A stretch of DNA of 64,000 nt from a virus (IMGVR_UViG_3300040770_000357); one strand, 5' to 3'. Counted from the first letter of the stretch, positions 6,251 to 35,872 are shown. A program made the numbers and translations. The notes: a model not told the origin generated them from the letters alone.

Positions 6251-7387
6251 ATGAATAATAAAAACATTAAAGCCGACATAGTTGTAGGTTTAGGCTACGG
6301 TGATGAAGGTAAAGGTATTACTACCGATTTTTTGTGTTCAAAATCAGAAAACCCAATTGTTATTAGATATTCTGGTGGTCAGCAAGCTGGTCATACAGTT
6401 ATGTATAATGGCGTAAAACATATCCATTCTAATTTTGGGTCTGGTAGTCTTAGAGGTGTTCCAACATATTTTTCAGAACACACAACCATTTACCCAGTAA
6501 CTATCGCTAGAGAGTTAAAGGTCCTAAAAGGTAAGGGTATTGACCCAGAACTAACAATACATCCATTAGCGATGATTACAACACCTTATGATGTGTATGC
6601 TAATAGAGTTGATGTTGATAATTTAAGTCATGGTACATGTGGTCTTGGTGTTGGTAAAACAATGAAAAGAAATGAAGGGCCATTTAAACTATACGCTATT
6701 GATTTGTTAGACCCTAGTACACTTATGGATAAAGTAAGAAGTATTAGAGAGAACTACTATTGTGGTGTAATAGTTGAAACTAATGAATTTTTAATTGAGC
6801 TTGAAGAATTTCTTGAGGCGATACTTGATTCATCAATCAATTGGAACATTAAAGGTTATAATTATTTATTAAATTACAGTAATTTAATTTTTGAGGGTTC
6901 ACAAGGTATACTATTGGATATGGACCATGGTGTTTTTCCACATGTTACGTATTCCAATACAACATCCAAAAATGCTCATCAAATACTAGATAAAATATCA
7001 GTAACTAACAGGAACATGTATTATATAACTAGGTGTTATAGCACAAGACATGGTTCTGGGCCGTTTATAGAGAATACTGTAACATTAATAAATAATACTG
7101 AGGAAATTAATGTTAATAATGAGTATCAAAAAAACTTTAAGTTAGCTAAATTAAGTTATGTTAGCCTTAACCATGCATTAATGATAGACGATATTTATTC
7201 TAATGGTAAAACGGTTACTAAAAATTTAGTAGTTACGTGTTTAGACCAATTACCATTATTTAAATTAAAAGAGGAATATTTAGAGGTTAAGTTTGATTCA
7301 ATCTACGAATCATATTCACCAGAAAGTAAAGATTATAAACTAAAAACAGAAAAAACATGGGACATTTCTCGCACAATTGCAAACTAA
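6251..7387 (+). CDS. Divergent adenylosuccinate synthetase-like protein
   Basis: GLGYGDEGKG, GGQQAGHT, FEGSQGILLD, TRHGSGPF; no TTGRxRR aspartate loop. Confidence 0.8.
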   Translation: MNNKNIKADIVVGLGYGDEGKGITTDFLCSKSENPIVIRYSGGQQAGHTVMYNGVKHIHSNFGSGSLRGVPTYFSEHTTIYPVTIARELKVLKGKGIDPELTIHPLAMITTPYDVYANRVDVDNLSHGTCGLGVGKTMKRNEGPFKLYAIDLLDPSTLMDKVRSIRENYYCGVIVETNEFLIELEEFLEAILDSSINWNIKGYNYLLNYSNLIFEGSQGILLDMDHGVFPHVTYSNTTSKNAHQILDKISVTNRNMYYITRCYSTRHGSGPFIENTVTLINNTEEINVNNEYQKNFKLAKLSYVSLNHALMIDDIYSNGKTVTKNLVVTCLDQLPLFKLKEEYLEVKFDSIYESYSPESKDYKLKTEKTWDISRTIAN

Positions 7388-10004: not shown

Positions 10005-10745
10005 ATGAAAAACATATACATATTACCAACAGATAAACCAAGTAGAGTTTATAAACATTTAGGTAGAGAACTTAAATATACCGCAAGATATTTTGAACAA
10101 AAAGGATTTTTATGTGTAAACCAAAATATGTACATCACTTCTGATGAAGAAATTAAAGATGGTTGGGTTTGGCACTTAGGGAGAGGGCATTTACTTAAAG
10201 TAGGGCAGTTTACTGAAATCAATGGAAATAAGGGTTTTAGAGATACTGAATTCATATTGAATGGTATTGAAGTTTTAGTTAAAGACTGTAAAAAAGTTGT
10301 TTTAACAACAGACCAATCATTAGATGGTGTACAAGCTATACCAGATAATTTTTTAGAATGGTTTGTTAAGAATCCAAGTTGTGAGGAAGTTAAAGTTGAA
10401 TATGGGTGTTGTGGACAATGTGATGAAAGATTATGTGAGGTGTTTGATTTAGGTTTAAAACAAGGACTATACAAAATAATCATTCCAAAAGAAGAAACAC
10501 TTGAAGAAGCTATATCTAAAGAATTAGCAACTTTTAAACAAAGTATGGAACCTCATTTAATAAAACGTAATATAAATTTTATCCAAGGAGCAAACTTTGG
10601 TGCTAAATGGCAACAAGAAAGCAGTAAACAAGATTTGAAAGACTTATGGGATTATGTTAATGAAAGGTGTTTAAATCATTTAGACGATGAAGCTCCACAG
10701 TTAGGTACTTTCAACGAATGGTTTAACCAATTTAAAAAAAGATAA
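10005..10745 (+). CDS. Hypothetical phage protein (NIYILPTDKPSR family)
   Basis: ORF in operon; motifs shared with 9202-9693. Confidence 0.7.
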   Translation: MKNIYILPTDKPSRVYKHLGRELKYTARYFEQKGFLCVNQNMYITSDEEIKDGWVWHLGRGHLLKVGQFTEINGNKGFRDTEFILNGIEVLVKDCKKVVLTTDQSLDGVQAIPDNFLEWFVKNPSCEEVKVEYGCCGQCDERLCEVFDLGLKQGLYKIIIPKEETLEEAISKELATFKQSMEPHLIKRNINFIQGANFGAKWQQESSKQDLKDLWDYVNERCLNHLDDEAPQLGTFNEWFNQFKKR

Positions 10746-11036
10746 GTTATGGTGTTAAGGAATATACTTGGGGTTATTGTAATCCTAGCTTGTCTTAGTA
10801 GTTTTATAAGATTCGGTTATTCAATTTATCCATTTGTTATAATTAACCTACAGATAGTTATGTTAATCATTCAAAATAAATATGTTAAGCAATAACAGTG
10901 GGATTAAAAACATTATTTAGTGCAATTTGTATCATATTTGTATTAAAAAGAGTAATATAACGCACTTTAAAAAATAAATTAAAAATAATTGCAAAAAGAC
11001 TTGCTTTATTAAAATAAGTGTAGTATATTTGCAGAA

Positions 11037-11872
11037 GAAATAAAGGAAGTGAAAACTTAATTTAAAATAATAGGGTGCTTATACTCTATAGGATAAACTC
11101 AGCAATGAGGATAAAGCAGAAATGCGTTGGCGATTCCCAATCCACGTAAGCAAATTAAACACGGTTCATGTGTTAAACCTAAGAAACATCTGTTGGAAGG
11201 TTTGTGTGTGAATTATCTACCTTAGTTGAATTCTTTGGGTAGGTTGAGTATGAAAGTACAATAGAAACCCTCGCTGGTGAAGTTTAATAGAAATCGGTGA
11301 ATAACTGTAAAAAGGGAATAAGCTGAAATCATTCTGGATTCTTACGGATAAAGTGAAAACCTAAGTAAGAGAAATGAACATACTGTAAAAGGTATATCGA
11401 GGTGTCGTTGGATAATCTACCCAAAAAGTAGTACGCCATACAATCTGTGAACACATCTTGAATTGAGAGTTTAACGCTATCGGCTGCGTAAGCCAATTTT
11501 TTATTGAAAAAAAAAAGACAGCAAAAGTTTCACAGAACTTGATTTGAAAAATGAGTTATACTGTTGTAATATACAGTTGTGTTAGTAGGCCGCAAGCCAA
11601 ATACATAAAATAAAGTGAGTATTTCTAAGCCAACAGCCAGCCAGCTGCTAACCTCGCAAGGGGGTCGAAAGAAAATAGAGTTTATATAGAGTCGAGTAGT
11701 GATTGCAGAATCGTAAAATCTGTCTCATTGTTAACTATCCTTGGAAACATGGATGTGTGTTATAGGTGAAAACCTTAAAAATGTTAACTCTAATGCTGAA
11801 CACTCAAGCATATAGTAAAATAGGGAGTAGTATGTAAGCTACGGTAGAGGTTGAAGTCCTTGTATTCCCACT
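11037..11872 (+). ncRNA. Large ornate structured RNA, GOLLD-like candidate
   Basis: ~830 nt ORF-free tract after a promoter, many GNRA-capped hairpins, next to tRNA array; family assignment unverified. Confidence 0.65.
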
Positions 11873-11900
11873 AGAAAAAATAAATTAAAAATAAATGTAA

Positions 11901-11950
11901 AAAGACTTGCTTTATTAAAAAAGATGTAGTATATTTGCTAAAGAAATAAA
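11901..11950 (+). promoter_or_regulatory. Promoter of tRNA operon; near-duplicate of promoter at 10994-11043
   Basis: AAAGACTTGCTTTATTAAAA..AG.TGTAGTATATTTGC..AAGAAATAAA in both. Confidence 0.75.
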
Positions 11951-12028
11951 AAAATAAATAAAAATCTGTACTTTTAATAAAAAAGGTATATTTATATTAA
12001 ACGGATAGAATCCACAATAAAAGAAATT

Positions 12029-12130
12029 ATGAAAACAACAACCACATATCAAAAGAAACAGTATACGCAAGGCGGGCAACCGCAAGGCAAGCTGGGTATG
12101 TTAAGTTGTCAAGATTTAACCACGATATAA
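12029..12130 (+). CDS. Putative attenuator leader peptide MKTTTTYQKKQYTQGGQPQGKLGMLSCQDLTTI
   Basis: 33-codon ORF with A-rich initiation context between promoter and terminator; contains antiterminator strand. Confidence 0.7.
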   Translation: MKTTTTYQKKQYTQGGQPQGKLGMLSCQDLTTI

Positions 12131-12159
12131 TGTAGCGTAAAAACCTATATAAAAATCAG

Positions 12160-12195
12160 ACCCAGTTCAGAGTAAAATCTAAACTGGGTTTTTTT
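12160..12195 (+). terminator. Attenuator-type intrinsic terminator upstream of tRNA array
   Basis: ACCCAGTT...AACTGGGT + T run; alternative pairing with AGCTGGGT at 12090-12097. Confidence 0.8.
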
Positions 12196-12213
12196 ATGTT
12201 AAAAAATTAAATT

Positions 12214-12294
12214 GGGGTCCGCTAGAGTCGGAGAGCTAGGGCGGTCTGTAACACCGTTGCGAAAGCTGAATAGGTTCGAATCCTATGGTCCCCA
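12214..12294 (+). tRNA. tRNA-Tyr(GTA), atypical
   Basis: Loop CT-GTA-AC, long variable arm, T arm ATAGG/CCTAT; one T-T acceptor mismatch, short 8-9 linker. Confidence 0.75.
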
Positions 12295-12363
12295 CAGAGA
12301 AGAGACTGTTACTAATTCATAGGACACCAAGGTAAAGTACTGGAAGCGTAGAATTAGAAATCA

Positions 12364-12454
12364 CTAGATGTGAAGGCAATTGGAAGCCGACTCCACTTGG
12401 AATGGAGAAGTAGTGTTAAAACGCTCAATGCGAGTTCGAGTCTCGTCTTCTAGA
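12364..12454 (+). tRNA. tRNA-Pro(TGG) with unusually long variable arm
   Basis: C1-G72/A73, CTCCA-CTTGGAA-TGGAG, 22-nt variable region. Confidence 0.75.
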
Positions 12455-12461
12455 CAAAAAT

Positions 12462-12538
12462 GCGTCCCATAGCTTAAATGGTAAAGCGGCATCCATGAGG
12501 GGTGTATGGATTGGAGGTTCGAGCACTTCTGGGAGGCC
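12462..12538 (+). pseudogene. Degenerate tRNA-like sequence (G-1:C73, anticodon unassignable)
   Basis: Good D arm, mismatched T arm and anticodon loop. Confidence 0.5.
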
Positions 12539-12543
12539 AAATT

Positions 12544-12616
12544 CGGGGTATAGCTTATATGGTAAAGCACTGGCTCGCTGTCAGTTTAATGGTAGGTTCG
12601 AACACTCCTACCCCGA
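12544..12616 (+). pseudogene. Degenerate tRNA-like sequence (5-nt anticodon loop)
   Basis: Perfect acceptor CGGGGTA/TACCCCG, D arm, broken T arm. Confidence 0.5.
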
Positions 12617-12629
12617 CAAAAATTAAAAT

Positions 12630-12703
12630 GCTATATACGCATAAACGGTGGTGCACAACATTTGTAACGTTGAATAGACTCGGTTCGATTCCGAGATATA
12701 GCT
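12630..12703 (+). tRNA. tRNA-Thr(TGT)
   Basis: Full cloverleaf, C2-G71, loop TT-TGT-AA. Confidence 0.88.
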
Positions 12704-12725
12704 CTAAAATTAAATAATATAGATT

Positions 12726-12761
12726 ATGAAAAATATAAAGAACATAAAGAATAAACAGTAA
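12726..12761 (+). CDS. Putative micro-ORF MKNIKNIKNKQ
   Basis: A-rich start context, followed by hairpin and two tRNA-Lys genes. Confidence 0.35.
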   Translation: MKNIKNIKNKQ

Positions 12762-12796
12762 CTACCTTCAATGCGTTGAGGGATAGTAATAACTAT

Positions 12797-12868
12797 GGCT
12801 TCAAAACATTGCTGGCGATGTACTCGGCTTTTAACCGAGGAAAATGAGTTCGATTCTCATTGGGGCTA
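12797..12868 (+). tRNA. tRNA-Lys(TTT), copy 1
   Basis: CTCGG-CTTTTAA-CCGAG; T arm ATGAG/CTCAT; G-U rich acceptor. Confidence 0.82.
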
Positions 12869-12885
12869 CTAGATTATATTAAATT

Positions 12886-12960
12886 GCATCTATAGCCAAA
12901 ATGGAATAAGGCACCTAACTTTTAATTAGGGCTGTCTGGGTTCGAGCCCCAGTGGATGCA
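12886..12960 (+). tRNA. tRNA-Lys(TTT), copy 2
   Basis: CCTAA-CTTTTAA-TTAGG; full cloverleaf. Confidence 0.88.
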
Positions 12961-12979
12961 CAAAATATAATATATAAAA

Positions 12980-13055
12980 CTGGGTGTAGACTAATTGGTA
13001 AGTCGCCTACCTTGGACGTAGGACATTATTGCAGGTTCGAAGCCTGTCACCCAGA
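12980..13055 (+). tRNA. tRNA-Pro(TGG), copy 2
   Basis: CTGGGTG/CACCCAG, CCTAC-CTTGGAC-GTAGG. Confidence 0.9.
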
Positions 13056-13189
13056 CGAAATTAGTAACAATACAATGTGTCGAAAGCATTGGTTACATTG
13101 CGATTAGGAGCCACAATGGGAAGTACGAAAGGAGTAATTAACCAGACGTAAGGGTTCGGTATAGTGATTAACCTTCCTTAATTTTATTT

Positions 13190-13261
13190 GCAGAAGTAGC
13201 TCAATGGTAGAGCACTAGATTTCCAATCTGGGGGTTGCGAGTTCGAGCCTCGTCTTCTGCT
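13190..13261 (+). tRNA. tRNA-Gly(TCC)
   Basis: Canonical cloverleaf, U73. Confidence 0.92.
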
Positions 13262-13323
13262 CTGTGTTCAGTTTATTCGAATGTTCATGAAAAATGAACA
13301 ACCGAATATAATGAACAACATAC

Positions 13324-13396
13324 TGGAATATGATGCAACTGGTTAGCATACTACACTTTGACTGTAGCTATTAGGGTTCGAATCCCTATATTCCGA
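13324..13396 (+). tRNA. tRNA-Gln(TTG)
   Basis: CTACA-CTTTGAC-TGTAG; full cloverleaf. Confidence 0.88.
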
Positions 13397-13400
13397 CTGA

Positions 13401-13471
13401 GAGGTCAAAAGTGTTACGGTACACCCTCGGCATTTAGCTGGGTATTATAGGTTCGAATCCTATTTGGTCGC
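13401..13471 (+). pseudogene. Degenerate tRNA-like sequence (G-1:C73, loop CATTTAG)
   Basis: Good D and T arms, lacks U33, acceptor mismatch. Confidence 0.5.
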
Positions 13472-13539
13472 AAAATAAGTTACTTGAAATTTTGATAGTT
13501 TAAATTAATAATATATATTTGTAATCTAATACATATATT

Positions 13540-13842
13540 ATGGAATGTAGAAAAGAAGTTATAGTTGATGGTGTAAGGGTTTATGAAGATAAGATGAAAT
13601 ACGGTACGTTAGAAGAGGCCATTACTGCTTGTAAGGTTTTAAATTCGTATGATGATAGGGTACAAAAATTAGTCTCATATAAGTGTAAGGAATGTTTTAA
13701 GTTTCATATCGGAAGAAATGGTAGTTTGATTAAAGATAAAGATAAAACTAAAATGCAAATAAAACTTGCTGAGAAAAAGGTAAAAAAATCTTTTAGTGGT
13801 TTTAAGGTAGTTGGTTTTGTTGATTTAGATAGGATAAAGTAA
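13540..13842 (+). CDS. Hypothetical basic protein (YKCxxCxxFHIG)
   Basis: ORF after TATATTTG promoter. Confidence 0.7.
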   Translation: MECRKEVIVDGVRVYEDKMKYGTLEEAITACKVLNSYDDRVQKLVSYKCKECFKFHIGRNGSLIKDKDKTKMQIKLAEKKVKKSFSGFKVVGFVDLDRIK

Positions 13843-13917
13843 AAAAAAATTAAGTTTTTATTAGGTTATATATTTTATTATATTTACCTTTGTTAAATAA
13901 TCTTAAATTATAATAAA

Positions 13918-14307
13918 ATGATAGTAAATATTAATGATTTAGAATTCAATAACGAAAATTTAACTAAACATATTGAATCATTAAATTCACCACGTAATTT
14001 GAAAACAATTAAAAAACGTGAAGACATGTTAATGATTGATTGGTTAAATATTGATATGAATAGAATTAATTTTTCAATTATTGACAAAGAAATTCTTTTA
14101 AATTTTTTCCAATCAGAAAATTTAAATAATTTAAAAAATAAAGAATTTTTTAGTTTATTATTTAAAGCTGTCGAGCTAAAAAATGAAGAATTTTTATGGG
14201 TGTATTGTGTTGATATGAATAGAATAATTTCAAATGAATTTTATCTAATGAACACATACGATGAAAATTTAGAGTTATTATTTAAATATTATAGTAATAA
14301 ACAATAA
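13918..14307 (+). CDS. Hypothetical protein
   Basis: ORF after TACCTTTG promoter. Confidence 0.6.
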   Translation: MIVNINDLEFNNENLTKHIESLNSPRNLKTIKKREDMLMIDWLNIDMNRINFSIIDKEILLNFFQSENLNNLKNKEFFSLLFKAVELKNEEFLWVYCVDMNRIISNEFYLMNTYDENLELLFKYYSNKQ

Positions 14308-14314
14308 GAAAAAT

Positions 14315-14387
14315 TGTTGAGTAGATTAATTGGCAAACGTCCTACGCTATAGTAGGAAGATGTGGTGTTCAAATCCCACCTCAACAG
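14315..14387 (+). pseudogene. Gln-like tRNA body with 6-nt anticodon loop
   Basis: TGTTGAG/CTCAACA, G73; CCTAC-GCTATA-GTAGG. Confidence 0.55.
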
Positions 14388-14395
14388 CAAGATAA

Positions 14396-14455
14396 AGAAT
14401 GATTTCAGCAATTAACAAAAACAAACTTTTAATTTGAAACAAACATATCATTCTG
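14396..14455 (+). ncRNA. Small RNA presenting a Lys(UUU) anticodon stem-loop
   Basis: AGAATGAT/ATCATTCT closing stem, inner CAAA-CTTTTAA-TTTG. Confidence 0.45.
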
Positions 14456-14463
14456 TTCTTAAT

Positions 14464-14544
14464 GGGTTCATTGAGCAATTGGTTGGCTCGCTTGGTTGTA
14501 GCCCAAGTCTTAATCGCATGGGGGTTCGAATCCCTCTGGACCCA
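14464..14544 (+). tRNA. tRNA-Tyr(GTA), copy 2
   Basis: CTTGG-TTGTAGC-CCAAG, 12-nt variable region. Confidence 0.82.
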
Positions 14545-14612
14545 CTAGTTATAGTAAATTTTAGATTTTTGTCTAGTAATTGGCATTTTCAATGGGACAA
14601 TAAAAATCAAAC

Positions 14613-14693
14613 GGAGTTGCTTTGGGTGTGTGAACCCAGCCAGCGTTGAAGCTGGTGCCTTGTGCTGATTAGGTTAGAATCCTTTCGGCTCCA
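14613..14693 (+). pseudogene. Atypical tRNA-like sequence (Ser TGA-like 6-nt loop)
   Basis: Acceptor GGAGTTG/CGGCTCC, CCAGC-GTTGAA-GCTGG, T loop TTAGAAT. Confidence 0.5.
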
Positions 14694-14698
14694 CAAAC

Positions 14699-14769
14699 GC
14701 TCACTTAGTATAATGGTATTACTCTGGCTTTGTAACCCAGAAATAGCAGTTCGAATCTGCTAGAGAGCT
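14699..14769 (+). tRNA. tRNA-Thr(TGT), copy 2
   Basis: Cloverleaf, C2-G71, loop TT-TGT-AA. Confidence 0.8.
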
Positions 14770-15037
14770 CACTTGACTTTTTTGTACTTTATCGTATTTT
14801 TATATAAAACGATAAATAATGGAAAGTTATACTAGAATAGAGGTTATACAATTTATGAATAGGCAAGGTATTGTTTGTGGTAATGATGAAGATTATGATA
14901 AATACTATGACCAATGGTTTGAATATATTGACGATGATAAATATGTTTTAATCGATTAAGTTAATAAATAAACAAAACTATGAAAAACACGCTAAAAAAC
15001 TCTCTGTTTTAAGGACTAATTCCTTAACAACAGAAAA

Positions 15038-15811
15038 ATGAGTAAAAACACAAAACACAAGAATTATAAGAGTTATTTAAAACTCTTGACAGAACAGGAG
15101 AAGTTAGAGGTTATCCGAAGAAATTTAGGGTACCGAGAACTAGAACAACCAAGACACCACGGGTATGAAGCGTATTTGGTGCTTAGGGATGATATCGCAA
15201 ATAGAGATGATGCACATATCTATCAACATTTAATTGATAACTATGCTAGTGTTACTTGGGCTAAAGATGGAGTCTTTTATTATAAGAAAAGAGGTTGTCT
15301 CATTGATAACACACCTAAATTTAGACGTGTTGACGAAAATCATTATAATCGATTAGACCCAAGAATCTTAAAGCATTTCGTTCATGATAGGTTTAAAGAT
15401 GAGAGTACATGGTATGGTATTAAGAAATACTTTTATAGTTACGTACCATCATATTATTTCGTTATGAAAATTAGAAAAAGTTATCTAACTCATGAAAAAG
15501 TAATTGATAGTGAATTGGAAAGAGAAATTAGTTTCGTTTATGATAAACTATACCAACTAAGAGAAGTTACACCTGTATATAATAATTATGGGTATTCTAA
15601 GTACAAAGACAGGTTCAATCGAAGTGATAGGCAGTTCAATAAAATGGCGTTAAGGAAAAATATAACAATGGAGTATGCATTTGATGATTCTGACTTACCA
15701 GATTTTAATGATGATGATTGGACTGATTGGGTTCACTCAAGCAGTTGGTCCCATGACCCATACGAATTTAGATATAAGACGAGAAGCCAAGCTAAATGGT
15801 TGTGGTGGTAA
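15038..15811 (+). CDS. Hypothetical protein, paralog of 20675-21352
   Basis: Shared GY...VLRxDIxNRxDAxxYQ motif. Confidence 0.75.
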   Translation: MSKNTKHKNYKSYLKLLTEQEKLEVIRRNLGYRELEQPRHHGYEAYLVLRDDIANRDDAHIYQHLIDNYASVTWAKDGVFYYKKRGCLIDNTPKFRRVDENHYNRLDPRILKHFVHDRFKDESTWYGIKKYFYSYVPSYYFVMKIRKSYLTHEKVIDSELEREISFVYDKLYQLREVTPVYNNYGYSKYKDRFNRSDRQFNKMALRKNITMEYAFDDSDLPDFNDDDWTDWVHSSSWSHDPYEFRYKTRSQAKWLWW

Positions 15812-27270: not shown

Positions 27271-28266
27271 ATGGTAATCAAGACAGATTTTAACCCAAAA
27301 GATTTTGATGTGGCAGTGCTTATTGCACGACTACAAGTTGACCAATTACATACTGGTCATAAAGAGTTAATTGACCACATTCAGTCATTACATAAAAAAG
27401 TTATCCTATTCTTAGGTGTACCTAGGGTAGAGGGAACTAGAAGGAACCCATTAGATTTTGCTATGCGAAAAATGATGGTTCAAAGTGAATATCCAAATAT
27501 TGTTATTTTACCAATTGTTGACCAAAGGTCTAATGAGATATGGAGTAATAATTTAGATTCTATGATACCAACAGTGTATGGTAGCAAAAAAACTATACTG
27601 TATGGTAGTAGAGATTCCTTTATACCATATTATAGTGGTAAATATAAAACAATTGAGTTACAACCAAGTGTTGACTATAATGGTACTAATATCAGAGAAG
27701 AATTATCAAAAGAAATAATAGACTCACCACTATTTAGAATTGGTGTGATACATCAAGCGTATTCTCAAAGACCATGTACTTTCCCAACAGTTGACATCTG
27801 TGTGTTTAATGATAAAGGTGAAATACTTATGGCTAAAAAGCCAAATGAGGCTTTGTGGCGATTCGTAGGTGGGTTTGTAGATACTGATGACACTAGTTAT
27901 GAGATAGCCGCTGAGAGAGAGTTTAGAGAAGAAACTGGCGGTAATTGTTCTGTTGGTGAAATGACTTATATTACAAGCCAAAAAATTGATGATTGGAGAT
28001 ACAGAAAAGAGACCTCTGGTATCATGACAACATTATTTCTTGCTGAATATGGTTTTGGTATGGTGAGTGCTAGTGATGACATTGTTGATTTAAAATGGAT
28101 TGATTTTAATAATTTCAGTAATTACGATGGTATCAGAACGAATGTTATGCCAGAGCATAGAGAACTTATGAGTACTTTAGTTGATAAGGTTTATAAGTAT
28201 AATCTTTTACCAAACATAGGTAAAAGATTAGTTGAAAGAACAAATGTAACATATATAAACGAATAA
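27271..28266 (+). CDS. Bifunctional NMN adenylyltransferase / Nudix ADP-ribose pyrophosphatase (NadM-Nudix)
   Basis: LHTGH motif, RNPL, Nudix box GGFVD...AAEREFREETG. Confidence 0.9.
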   Translation: MVIKTDFNPKDFDVAVLIARLQVDQLHTGHKELIDHIQSLHKKVILFLGVPRVEGTRRNPLDFAMRKMMVQSEYPNIVILPIVDQRSNEIWSNNLDSMIPTVYGSKKTILYGSRDSFIPYYSGKYKTIELQPSVDYNGTNIREELSKEIIDSPLFRIGVIHQAYSQRPCTFPTVDICVFNDKGEILMAKKPNEALWRFVGGFVDTDDTSYEIAAEREFREETGGNCSVGEMTYITSQKIDDWRYRKETSGIMTTLFLAEYGFGMVSASDDIVDLKWIDFNNFSNYDGIRTNVMPEHRELMSTLVDKVYKYNLLPNIGKRLVERTNVTYINE

Positions 28267-28794: not shown

Positions 28795-29424
28795 ATGACT
28801 GAGGAAGTATTAAATATTTTAAATGAAGACTATAATCAAGGTTCAACATATAGTCTTGTTGGTTTAAGTAACGTGGGTAAAACAGCGTTACTTTTAAATA
28901 TAGCTGTTAAGTTAAGTCTTAGAGGTAAGAAAATTTTATTTTTGACTGATGAATCAATACCACTAACCTATAAAAAGTTACATAATTTAATGGGTAGCTT
29001 TGCAAACGGAGAAATTATTGTTTCAGATAGTTTAAGTAATATAAATGAGCTTGACAATATGTTTAAAGCTTTAAAATTTGATTTACTTATTGTTGATGAC
29101 ACTATGATGTCTGAGTATTCATATGGAGTGTTTAGTACTATGTCTAAAGAACATAATTGCTCAGTTATTTTTACATATAATGCACGAAAAAATATTATTA
29201 CCAGTACTAATATTTTTGGTAGAAGCATTAAATACTTACAACAGAGTGATGTTGTTATGCAATTAGAGAAATTATCTTTAACCGAAACGTTATTAACTAA
29301 AATTTATTACGTACTTTTGTTTTGGAATAAAAAACCAAACCTTAGCCTCAGTATTATTAAAAATAGATTTGGTAAAGAATCAACCACAAACTTTTTTTTA
29401 GATTTAAACTTAAATAAAAAATAA
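28795..29424 (+). CDS. RecA/DnaB-like P-loop NTPase (short)
   Basis: GLSNVGKT, LLIVDD, IIKNRFG. Confidence 0.65.
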   Translation: MTEEVLNILNEDYNQGSTYSLVGLSNVGKTALLLNIAVKLSLRGKKILFLTDESIPLTYKKLHNLMGSFANGEIIVSDSLSNINELDNMFKALKFDLLIVDDTMMSEYSYGVFSTMSKEHNCSVIFTYNARKNIITSTNIFGRSIKYLQQSDVVMQLEKLSLTETLLTKIYYVLLFWNKKPNLSLSIIKNRFGKESTTNFFLDLNLNKK

Positions 29425-30986
29425 TGAGTATACATAGACAATTAAGAAGAAAATTAACCAATGCGATAACCAGTCAAAATTGGGGTGATTTTAAAGAAAT
29501 TGAAAAGCAGTTATTTAAAGTACTTGAAAAACCAGAAAACCTTATTTTATTAAGTGATGGATATAAGTATTCACACCCAAAATTTTATGGTAGTGAAATG
29601 ACAAAAATGATTTCGTATATGGAATCAAGAGGTGGTAAATTTTCAGAAACAGTTTTTTACGGGCTTCAAATTTTTCTTAAAACATATCTTGATGGAATTG
29701 CGATAATTAAAGAAGATGTTGATGAAGCGGAAGCATATCTTGGGGGTAAATTAGGTATTTTTGGTAGAAGTGATGTATTTGATAGAAGTAAATTTGATTA
29801 TATCATTGATAAGTATGATGGTAGATTACCAGTTAGGATTTGTGCTGTACCAGAAGGTACCGTTGTTAATGTTAAAAATGTTCTATTAACTATTGAAAGC
29901 CTTGACCCAGAATGTGCTTGGTTAACCAATTTCTTGGAATCACTTATTCTTCAGATTTGGTACCCAATTACTGTTGCAACGCTTTCTAGAGAAGTTAAAA
30001 AAGTTGTATTAAAGGCATTTAAAAATAGCACATCATATGATGATGCAACAATCGATATTTTGGTTGGGTATGTTTTAAATGATTTTGGTTTTAGAGGTGT
30101 TTCATCTGTACAATCAGCAAAACATGGTGGTTCGGCTCACTTAATTAATTTTGATGGTTCTGATACGGTTGTTGCATCAAAATTAATTAGAGAATTATAC
30201 AATACTGATACTATTTTCGGTAAATCTATTCCAGCAACTGAACACTCAATAATGACACTTAAAGGTGAAGAAGGTGAGTTGGAGTTAATGAAAAGAGTTT
30301 TAACATTATTCCCAACAGGTTTAGTTGCCTGTGTGTCTGATAGTTATAACATATTCAGAGCATGTAGTGAATATTGGGGTGGTGAGTTGAGAGATTTGAT
30401 TTTATCTAGACCATCAGAACCAGGTAATCAATTGGTTATTAGACCAGATTCTGGTCATGTTACTAGAACATTAATTGAGATTTTTAATATTCTTTTTGAG
30501 ACATTTGGTTATACAACTAATGAAAAAGGGTATAAAGTTTTACCACCACAAGTTAGGGTAATTCAAGGTGATGGTGTTAATTTTGAGTCAATCAGTGAGA
30601 TTTATGAGTTATTGGATAAGCATAAAATTTCACCAGAAAACTTAGCATTAGGTATGGGTGGTAAGTTATTACAAGCTGATATAAATAGAGATACACAAAA
30701 TTTCGCAACAAAAGCATGTTTTGCAATTGTTGATGGTGAAGAAAGAAATATTATCAAGTCACCAACTGAAATGGATGCGGATGGTAATATAGTTAAATCA
30801 TTTAAAAAATCTAAACAAGGTAAACTTAAATTGGTTAGTAATGGTGATGGTACATTCAGAACTGTAACATCATTGGATAGCGATTATAATACTGTTAAAG
30901 ATGAATTAATACCAGTATTTGATAGTGGTGTAATTCTAAAAGAATATACTTTTGAAGAAGTGAGAGATAATGCAAAAATAAACTAA
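29424..30986 (+). CDS. nadV: Nicotinamide phosphoribosyltransferase
   Basis: SDGYKYSH, NDFGFRG, IPATEHS, VSDSY, VIRPDSG, IQGDG, GMGGKLLQ. Confidence 0.92.
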   Translation: MSIHRQLRRKLTNAITSQNWGDFKEIEKQLFKVLEKPENLILLSDGYKYSHPKFYGSEMTKMISYMESRGGKFSETVFYGLQIFLKTYLDGIAIIKEDVDEAEAYLGGKLGIFGRSDVFDRSKFDYIIDKYDGRLPVRICAVPEGTVVNVKNVLLTIESLDPECAWLTNFLESLILQIWYPITVATLSREVKKVVLKAFKNSTSYDDATIDILVGYVLNDFGFRGVSSVQSAKHGGSAHLINFDGSDTVVASKLIRELYNTDTIFGKSIPATEHSIMTLKGEEGELELMKRVLTLFPTGLVACVSDSYNIFRACSEYWGGELRDLILSRPSEPGNQLVIRPDSGHVTRTLIEIFNILFETFGYTTNEKGYKVLPPQVRVIQGDGVNFESISEIYELLDKHKISPENLALGMGGKLLQADINRDTQNFATKACFAIVDGEERNIIKSPTEMDADGNIVKSFKKSKQGKLKLVSNGDGTFRTVTSLDSDYNTVKDELIPVFDSGVILKEYTFEEVRDNAKIN

Positions 30987-34897: not shown

Positions 34898-35872
34898 ATG
34901 AGTAGTTCAATACTATTTACAATCGGTAAAAGTCAGTTAACAGTACCTATTATAAGGGAATGTAATAATTTTAGTTTAGATATAATTATAGGTGAATTAA
35001 GGGAACAACAATTTTCTGATGGTGAGTTTTGTGTTGATTTTATTAGTTCTGTTAGAGGTAAAAAAATATATATTCTATCCACTTTAAACAACTCTAATGA
35101 GATAATTAAACTATGTTTGGCGATTGATGCCGCTAAACGTGCTGGTGCAATGGAGATTATACCTATTTTACCTTATTTCATATATGCAAGAGGTGATAAG
35201 AAAGACCAGTCACGTGGACCTATTGCTGGTAAAATGATGGCTGAAATGATTGAACAGCGTGGTGCAACATCTGTTATAACATTTGACTTACATGCCGACC
35301 AAATACAAGGGTTCTTTACAATACCAGTAATTCACATCCAAGGTAAGAATGTTTTTGATACATACATAAAAGATGTTTATGATGCGCATACTATTCTATG
35401 TTCGCCAGATGCTGGTGGTGGGAAACGTGTAAAGCGCATGAAAGACCAATTAGAAAAAAGATATTATTTACAGTTAAACTACGTTATGTTAGATAAGACA
35501 AGGAGTGAAGCTAATGTAGTTGACGAAATGGTTATAATTGGTGATGTTAGAGGTAAAAATGTTATAATAATTGATGATATGGTTGATACTGCTGGTACTC
35601 TATGTAAGGCTGCTGAGGTTATCATGGCAAATGGTGCTAAAAGCGTTAGGGCTGTTATAACACATGGTATTTGCTCTGGTGCTGCGTTAGCACGAATTGA
35701 GAACTCTGTTTTAACTGAGTTAGTTATTAGTGATTCACTACCAAAACCATGGGATACTAATGGAATATATGGAAATGGTAAGATAACAGTTGTTAGTGTT
35801 GGTAAACAAATAGGTATGGCCATAGCCTCAATGTCAAATCATTTGAGTTACGAAGAATTGAAAAACAAATAA
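34898..35872 (+). CDS. prs: Ribose-phosphate pyrophosphokinase family protein
   Basis: FSDGE, PYFIYARGDKK, DLHADQIQGFF, SPDAGG, IIDDMVDTAGT. Confidence 0.9.
   Translation: MSSSILFTIGKSQLTVPIIRECNNFSLDIIIGELREQQFSDGEFCVDFISSVRGKKIYILSTLNNSNEIIKLCLAIDAAKRAGAMEIIPILPYFIYARGDKKDQSRGPIAGKMMAEMIEQRGATSVITFDLHADQIQGFFTIPVIHIQGKNVFDTYIKDVYDAHTILCSPDAGGGKRVKRMKDQLEKRYYLQLNYVMLDKTRSEANVVDEMVIIGDVRGKNVIIIDDMVDTAGTLCKAAEVIMANGAKSVRAVITHGICSGAALARIENSVLTELVISDSLPKPWDTNGIYGNGKITVVSVGKQIGMAIASMSNHLSYEELKNK

Follow-up and report, generated by a model that had tools for sequence, protein, structure and literature searches.

A probable leader-peptide transcription attenuator in front of a tRNA array in a large phage

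The role of phage tRNAs has been debated for decades; among the functions under discussion are compensation for codon usage, making good the loss of degraded host tRNAs, and evasion of anticodon nucleases. In a stretch of viral DNA of 64,000 nucleotides (IMGVR_UViG_3300040770_000357; the whole stretch is called the window here), an array of tRNA genes is preceded by a promoter, a short open reading frame (ORF) and an intrinsic terminator. This arrangement raises the question of how transcription of the array is controlled. An earlier note on this DNA, written from the sequence alone, had read the arrangement as a leader-peptide attenuator of the trp/his type whose codons mirror the tRNA cargo. 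Our analysis supports this core reading, in that the ORF, the terminator and an internal copy of the terminator 3' arm are all kept in 27 distinct versions of the cassette. We consider it likely that the cassette is a ribosome-mediated (leader-peptide) transcription attenuator that sets how much of the tRNA array is transcribed. The attenuator very probably senses decoding capacity, and the phage probably makes these tRNAs only when the leader codons are read slowly.

The promoter, ORF, terminator and tRNA genes reported in the note were all found in that order and at those places; their coordinates, and those of the other features discussed below, are listed in Table 1. The distance between terminator and first tRNA needed a small correction: tRNA-Tyr starts 18 nt past the T run, and not 19 nt as had been stated. 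The leader ORF is preceded by an A-rich 5' untranslated stretch of about 90 nt. Alignment of the related loci showed that the promoter form TTG..TAnnTTTG is kept in them, and this form we take to be the -33/-7 promoter type of the Bacteroidota. A Shine-Dalgarno sequence is absent 5' of the leader ATG, which presumably also agrees with this phylum. The host of the phage is probably a member of the Bacteroidota.

Table 1. Features of the leader cassette, its surroundings and its tRNA cargo in the window, followed by the four cassettes of the related contig G001.
Feature	Position	Strand	Details
GOLLD RNA (RF02032) match	11397-11810	+	93.4 bits over the full model (1-416), E 6e-25; gathering score 150 not reached
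Promoter of the leader-tRNA transcript	11907-11937	+	TTG (-33), 20-nt spacer, TATATTTG (-7); A-rich stretch before
Leader ORF	12029-12130	+	33 codons, MKTTTTYQKKQYTQGGQPQGKLG...; stop TAA 12128-12130
Region 1	12038-12062	+	In the sensor codons (Thr-Thr-Thr-Tyr-Gln ... Gln-Tyr); pairs with region 2, anti-antiterminator
1:2 apex hairpin	12067-12088	+	GCGG/CCGC over Gly-Gly-Gln-Pro codons
Region 2	12090-12109	+	Core AGCTGGGT (12090-12097), near copy of the terminator 3' arm
Hairpin H1	12100-12120	+	Within the ORF, toward its 3' end; one arm of the antiterminator three-way junction
Hairpin H2	12124-12157	+	At/after the stop codon; second junction branch
Intrinsic terminator (regions 3 and 4)	12158-12195	+	Stem 12158-12167/12182-12191, inner 3 bp; T7 12189-12195
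tRNA array (regulated cargo)	12214-14770	+	ARAGORN and Rfam
Array start: Tyr(GUA)	from 12214	+	
Array start: Pro(UGG)	12364-12455	+	92 nt, long extra arm
tRNA-like genes Ser(tga), Ala(cgc)	12463-12538, 12544-12617	+	ARAGORN default, low confidence
Thr(UGU)	12630-12704	+	ARAGORN lower threshold (tgt); Rfam 42 bits
Array middle, after Thr		+	Lys(UUU) x2, Pro(UGG), Gly(UCC), Gln(UUG)
Third Lys, weak	13401-13472	+	ARAGORN lower threshold
Two ORFs in the array	13540-13842 (100 aa), 13918-14307 (129 aa)		Between Gln/Lys and the last Tyr/Thr
tRNA-like gene, 8-nt anticodon loop (ctat)	14315-14388	+	ARAGORN lower threshold
Array end, after the gene at 14315-14388		+	Tyr, then Thr
G001 cassette A			Leader begins MKTQTTYQTQYQPKGGKP; tRNAs Pro, Lys, Lys, Pro, Gly, Gln, Tyr, Thr, Gly
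G001 cassette B			Leader begins MRTINIHMISISNWRRNSHQ; tRNAs Ser, His, Trp, Ile, Ile, Met, Asn, Asn, Arg, Arg, Ser
G001 cassette C			Leader begins MRNTFNILVLLSLCLLVV; tRNAs Cys, Val, Leu, Leu, Val, Leu
G001 cassette D			Leader begins MRTLTNIFDFAFFAAEED; tRNAs Phe, one called SeC(tca), Glu, Asp, Ala

According to RNAfold, the terminator stem on the plus strand consists of 10 + 3 bp. A generic terminator scan reported a hairpin on the minus strand only; it missed the one on the plus strand because a C-A mismatch splits the stem. No promoter-like site was found in the 18-nt gap between the terminator and tRNA-Tyr, and transcripts reaching the tRNA genes must therefore cross the terminator hairpin. 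The alignment revealed that in one subgroup of relatives (L006, L012, L040, L042, L020 and L025) the gap of 18 nt seen in the window is replaced by a conserved spacer of about 58 nt containing TTCTTTGAAATATTGTATTTTTATC; this spacer might serve in processing or as an additional promoter of lower strength. When sequencing runs were searched, the stretch was matched in a single DNA run, from an ice metagenome, and in no RNA run.

A near-identical copy of the promoter is present at 10998-11032, at the head of an 830-nt stretch without ORFs (~11040-11870) that lies immediately upstream of the leader promoter. This copy was considered as the head of a second leader and rejected, as a GOLLD-like RNA is located there instead; no second leader cassette was found within the window. 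The counterpart of this promoter copy in the relative L015 also drives an RNA without a leader ORF. A first 5-kb Rfam scan had given no GOLLD match. The match obtained later covers the full GOLLD model with a score below the gathering score (Table 1), and a sequence 74% identical to the GOLLD-like stretch of the window occupies the same location in another locus (L205:260-735). The stretch is probably a GOLLD RNA gene; GOLLD RNAs are known near phage tRNA islands (bioRxiv 10.1101/2024.12.08.627333).

Elsewhere in the window, at 6251-7387, 27271-28266, 29424-30986 and 34898-35872, we observed a gene resembling that for adenylosuccinate synthetase (phrog_1211), together with a group of NAD salvage genes (NUDIX/cytidylyltransferase, NAMPT and PRPP synthetase), as is typical of large phages. 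If the former gene is of the PurZ type, the phage DNA would contain a modified adenine. Several contigs carrying relatives of the cassette are 200-367 kb in size, and a large phage as the source also fits the NAMPT, PRPP synthetase and large nuclease genes in the window.

The tRNA genes were identified with ARAGORN and Rfam. At default settings, the confident ARAGORN set comprises two Tyr, two Pro and two Lys tRNAs, and one each for Gly, Gln and Thr. The list in the earlier note thus held for the confident genes, except that one of its two Thr genes is detected only at a lower threshold. A third, weak Lys gene and three uncertain tRNA-like genes have to be added to that list. The latter three have Rfam scores of at most 29 bits or no match, and the Ser(tga) gene lacks U33; they may be decayed copies or unusual tRNAs. 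The Ser and Ala tRNA-like genes are not mirrored by the leader, and the two GGC codons of the leader lack a matching Gly(GCC) tRNA in the array. For the 100-aa and 129-aa ORFs within the array, no Pfam match was obtained.

The sizes of some of these tRNAs deserve mention in their own right. Near the start of the array in the window, and in many other arrays (for example, L010:6252-6347), there is a UGG (Pro) tRNA of 92-97 nt that has a long extra arm and often follows the terminator directly, and several arrays contain "long" Lys, Gln, Thr, Gly and Tyr tRNAs of 83-91 nt beside copies of normal length. A long variable arm is unexpected for Pro, Lys, Gln, Thr and Gly tRNAs.

We then analyzed the composition of the leader ORF. 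A recount of its codons 2-23 confirmed the figure given in the note: 21 of the 22 encode Lys, Thr, Tyr, Gln, Gly or Pro, the sole exception being Leu22. These six residues make up 29.6% of the residues in the 73 large ORFs of the window, and against this background the binomial probability of 21 out of 22 is about 1e-10. When 205 ORFs of 25-60 codons starting with ATG were compared over the six frames of the window, the next best reached 16 out of 22. The other two frames of the leader DNA contain just eight and six residues of the set in 22 positions, and one of them has a stop codon; the A/C richness of the DNA therefore does not explain the composition of the leader. Several leader codons are rare in the phage (GGC 4%, GGG 10%, CCG 3% and ACG 8%), which fits a sensitive sensor, RNA pairing being another possible cause.

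Relatives of the cassette were collected by pattern searches of IMG/VR with the terminator arms, of IMG/VR with two leader-core patterns, and of JGI metagenomes, and the matches were filtered by nhmmer and the codon pattern. Most of the loci returned by the two leader-core searches were chance matches that this filter removed, and L007 and L016 were chance matches to the terminator pattern. The cassette was found in about 48 related contigs, in 27 distinct DNA versions encoding about 20 distinct peptides, and many of these loci were identified by leader-core patterns that exclude the terminator arms. The DNA patterns were more productive than a search with the leader peptide alignment, which gave two loci only; a search with the neighbouring 264-aa protein gave three loci, all without tRNAs. 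In a blastn search of cultured-phage records with positions 11000-15000, only isolated tRNAs were matched, and the leader had no relative. The arrays behind the leader consist almost exclusively of Pro(UGG), Lys(UUU), Gln(UUG), Tyr(GUA), Thr and Gly tRNA genes.

Each of the 27 DNA versions retains the ATG and stays open for 31-33 codons, and TTYxxQYQPKGGKP is the core common to the peptides. In 23 distinct versions, 322 of the 327 core residues belong to the six amino acids. Among the variant sensor codons, nine changes are synonymous (ACA/ACG/ACC/ACT, CCT/CCG, AAA/AAG and CAA/CAG), 15 are replacements within the six-residue set, including Q/T/K swaps, and four lead outside it; random single-base changes in such codons are expected to give 20 within the set per 100 outside. 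Synonymous changes at third positions are concentrated in the sensor codons. A comparison between the window and L011 was informative, as the two differ by a 1-nt deletion and a 1-nt insertion located 27 nt apart. Between these positions the nucleotides are conserved and the amino acids, read in another frame, are not; beyond them, both sequences encode DLTTI followed by the stop codon, with synonymous differences. The indels compensate each other and the same end is regained, so the frame and the position of the stop matter and the middle of the peptide does not. The maintained ATG and frame, the compensated frameshift, and the synonymous and within-set changes are strong, if indirect, signs that the leader ORF is translated.

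To be an attenuator of the trp type, the leader RNA must be able to form mutually exclusive structures. The full-length leader folds with a minimum energy of -42.2 kcal/mol (z = -4.4), and none of 200 shuffled sequences folded as well. In every version, this full-length fold consists of the pairings 1:2 and 3:4. The 1:2 helices of the window are 12038-12042/12105-12109, 12044-12050/12095-12101 and 12059-12062/12091-12094, and 21-23 of 23 sequences preserve the pairs at their core. The terminator pairing is also well preserved, with 98.5% of the cells in the alignment of 23 sequences paired and three pairs changed on both sides.

The antiterminator is formed by AGCTGGGT (12090-12097) with ACCCAGTT (12160-12167), over 8 bp including one G-U pair; the fold thereby bears out the earlier proposal that the Lys-Leu-Gly codons pair with the terminator 5' strand. 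The 1:2 pairing, which the earlier note had missed, completes the classical four-region design. For the part of the transcript that exists before the terminator 3' arm is made, 2:3 is the minimum-energy fold, and it closes a three-way junction with the hairpins H1 and H2. When nt 1-45 were masked, mimicking a stalled ribosome, and region 4 was left unmade, 2:3 formed in all 23 versions. Across these sequences, 96.9% of the 2:3 cells are paired, versus 10-52% for controls in which the partner strand was slid. Covariation in 2:3 is thin, as four of the seven pairs are invariant and there is one double change. A clean three-way covariation read at first in L020 (region 2 CTGAAT, region 3 ATCCAG and region 4 CTGGAT) proved weaker, because region 2 varies at those positions throughout the subgroup of this locus.

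Both branches of the predicted junction are recognizable in the relatives. In H1, a compensatory change was noted by eye (GTTAA/TTAAC in the window versus GTCAA/TTGAC in L011 and L028). The site of H2 contains a hairpin in every relative, with a variable sequence (for example, GTAC/GTAC, GTAG/CTAC or AATTATA/TATAATT). Most versions retain CTGGGT, the core of region 2, even though the reading frame through it differs between two subgroups; five versions from the "QL" subgroup have one or two changes in it and one mismatch in 2:3. The codons at this place, Leu CTG and Gly GGG, are atypical of the window: GGG accounts for 10% of its Gly codons, and CTG is expected to be uncommon from the 30% G+C of the phage rather than from a codon count.

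Three features of these folds bear on how the switch might work. First, termination is favoured over antitermination by 4-11 kcal/mol in folding energy, and switching must therefore be kinetic, as in trp. Second, without masking, 2:3 is already the best fold before the terminator is made in about 15 of 22 versions, so the default without translation may be readthrough. Third, the stop codon of the leader is located about 30 nt beyond region 2, and a terminating ribosome would therefore leave region 2 uncovered, unlike the situation in trpL. Termination after passage of a fast ribosome would come about either by 1:2 forming again behind it, or by the ribosome occupying the place where the junction would form.

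The arrays behind the leader family of the window always have the same six specificities, and for this reason we searched the other tRNA blocks of the relatives. Three related phage contigs were scanned for all tRNAs, and 40-53 were found in each. The 306-kb contig G001 contains four cassettes, each with the same type of promoter, an ORF of 26-33 codons and a terminator (Table 1). Of the leader residues 2-20 of cassettes A to D, 17, 17, 10 and 11 out of 19, respectively, belong to the amino acid set of the cassette's own tRNA block, compared with 0-6 out of 19 for the sets of the other blocks. The correct assignment of leaders to blocks scores 55, the next best of the 24 permutations scores 36, and the binomial probabilities for single cassettes range from 1e-7 to 1e-3. 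All four cassettes fold into 1:2 and 3:4, and into 2:3 when masked. Taken together, the four leader-gated blocks of this contig leave none of the 20 amino acids without a tRNA.

In the 362-kb contig G003, cassettes A, C and D recur with matching blocks; the Ser/His/Trp/Ile/Met/Asn/Arg cassette (B) is present in only one of these two contigs. The matches between leaders and their own blocks in G001 and G003 show that the leaders track their tRNA cargo. The comparison of leader composition with array content across related phages, which the earlier note had suggested as a check, was thus positive. The cassettes are paralogues in which the sensor codons have been exchanged. As a separate observation, ARAGORN called Pyl(cta), SeC(tca) and one odd anticodon loop among the tRNAs of relatives (L209:4807-4880 and L211:2867-2942 of G001, and L015:9408-9485); such tRNAs may suppress stop codons in these large phages.

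On the basis of the anatomy of the sequence, its conservation, the alternative pairings and the match between leader and cargo, we infer that translation, stalling and switching would proceed as follows. Transcription would begin at the promoter, and a ribosome would translate the 33-codon leader, whose first ~20 codons specify Thr, Tyr, Gln, Lys, Pro and Gly. If decoding is quick, the ribosome would pass region 2 and H1 and reach the stop codon, 1:2 would pair again behind it, 3:4 would form, and RNA polymerase would terminate at the T run. If decoding is slow in any of the six codon families, because too little intact, charged tRNA is available, the ribosome would stall on region 1. Possible causes of such a shortage are decay of host tRNAs, their cleavage, a mismatch between the codons of the phage and the tRNA pool of the host, and amino-acid starvation. 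In the stalled situation, region 2 would be free to pair with region 3 in the three-way junction with H1 and H2, the terminator would be blocked, and the tRNA genes would be transcribed. As the tRNA products would themselves relieve the stall, the circuit would act as a negative-feedback homeostat for decoding capacity. The switch would depend on coupling of transcription and translation in the presumed Bacteroidota host.

The same RNA switch might instead report general translation status rather than the supply of six tRNAs, for example whether any ribosome is loaded, or the speed of ribosomes early versus late in infection, the match in composition being secondary. The preference for 2:3 without masking in many versions is in line with this, as any loss of translation could then give readthrough, and the coverage of all 20 amino acids by the G001 blocks would suit a need for global translation capacity. 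However, a reporter of general status does not require four paralogous leaders rewritten in the amino acids of their own blocks, nor does it require that replacements are confined to the set of the block, and we therefore regard this explanation as unlikely.

Another explanation is that the ORF encodes a functional micropeptide and is followed by an ordinary terminator, that the likeness to an attenuator is incidental, and that the tRNAs are obtained from leaky readthrough or from other promoters. The peptide core is indeed highly conserved, the ORF looks translated, and the conserved spacer that follows the terminator in one subgroup might hold a promoter. The C-terminal half of the peptide, however, switches frame between subgroups while the nucleotides stay unchanged, and the peptide cores of the paralogous cassettes are unrelated to each other and matched to their own tRNA blocks. 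In addition, a micropeptide gives no role to the internal copy of the terminator arm or to the 1:2 pairing, and the 18-nt gap of the window is too short for a promoter. Taken together, this makes a micropeptide very improbable.

Equally hard to sustain is the notion that the leader is an untranslated structured RNA (an sRNA, a processing signal or a protein-binding leader) with an open frame as a by-product of its A/C-rich sequence: the strength of the fold and the conservation of several segments at the nucleotide level irrespective of frame would suit it, but the poor composition of the other two frames, the frame kept open in 27 versions, compensated frameshift included, the clustering of third-position synonymous changes in the sensor codons, and the lack of any Rfam match in the leader, the T-box family included (positions 10500-15500, E up to 1), argue against it.

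Returning to the attenuator, the earlier note had gone one step further and proposed a damage sensor for counter-defence, aimed at anticodon nucleases such as PrrC, PARIS and PtuAB. This part is not specifically supported by our results. Four blocks in G001 gate all 20 amino acids, so the six-tRNA set is a partition of the full complement, and the idea that the six tRNAs are a list of nuclease targets is thereby weakened. Cleavage of tRNAs would trigger a general decoding sensor as well, but so, equally, would host tRNA decay, codon mismatch and starvation. Inducible counter-defence, in which loss of one of the six tRNA species to a host anticodon nuclease or to tRNA decay set off by infection would stall the leader ribosome and replacement tRNAs would be made within seconds, is a tentative proposal that we hold to be rather doubtful. 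If it is true, each tRNA operon of a large phage would have its own modular sensor, and the sensors would jointly watch over all 20 amino acids.

There are known defences in which tRNA-Lys(UUU) and tRNA-Thr(UGU) are cleaved, and phage tRNAs overcome them; thus, the tRNA-Lys, tRNA-Thr and tRNA-Asn of T5 counter the AriB nuclease of PARIS (PMC12409363). The likeness to the window lies in phage tRNAs that replace lost host tRNAs, and Lys(UUU) and Thr(UGU) are both in the window array; the difference is that the T5 work deals with the tRNAs themselves and describes no inducible control of their transcription (PMC12409363), and that here no nuclease is linked to the phage.

If the proposed attenuator operates, these phages would measure decoding capacity directly and correct it by feedback, and leader-peptide attenuation would extend from amino-acid and synthetase genes to tRNA genes, in a phage of a probable Bacteroidota host. 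The sensor codons appear modular and swappable, the paralogous cassettes provide natural controls, and a possible use is as a cellular reporter of the availability of specific tRNAs. A full-text search of the literature did not yield a description of leader-peptide attenuation of tRNA genes, whether phage or cellular.

The known leader-peptide attenuators of enterobacteria are trpL, hisL, leuL, thrL, pheL and the multivalent leader of ilvGMEDA. Set beside them from textbook descriptions, the window cassette has in common with the trpL type a short leader ORF with clustered regulatory codons, pairings 1:2, 2:3 and 3:4 that exclude one another, rare sensor codons, and an intrinsic terminator immediately ahead of the genes under control; with thrL and the ilv leader it shares the reading of several amino acids together. 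In contrast to the attenuators of amino-acid operons, its cargo is a tRNA array and not a set of biosynthetic enzymes, and the product therefore acts directly on the step that is sensed. For all the likeness of its proposed working, the cassette thus falls outside their class. It also differs from the trpL type in that six amino acids are monitored, the antiterminator is a three-way junction, and the ORF continues for about 30 nt past region 2 through a hairpin, whereas theirs stops beside region 2. Moreover, it is phage-encoded, modular with swapped sensor codons, and has a Bacteroidota-type promoter. It is not known to be related in sequence to the trpL-type attenuators.

Leader-peptide control of a gene of the translation apparatus is known from the pheST attenuator of E. 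coli, with the leader pheM. There too, stalling at the codons of an amino acid controls a component of the decoding machinery instead of a metabolic enzyme; the regulated gene, however, is a host gene for an aminoacyl-tRNA synthetase, and a single amino acid is sensed. The T-box (RF00230) is similar in that an intrinsic terminator upstream of genes of the translation apparatus is gated by tRNA status. It differs in that the RNA itself recognizes uncharged tRNA, by means of a specifier codon and the T-box bulge, without a need for translation, whereas the window leader has a conserved ORF and gave no RF00230 match in 10500-15500. Compared with these systems, the proposed mechanism is of a known kind, and the cargo, the quantity that is sensed and the modular setting in a phage are new.
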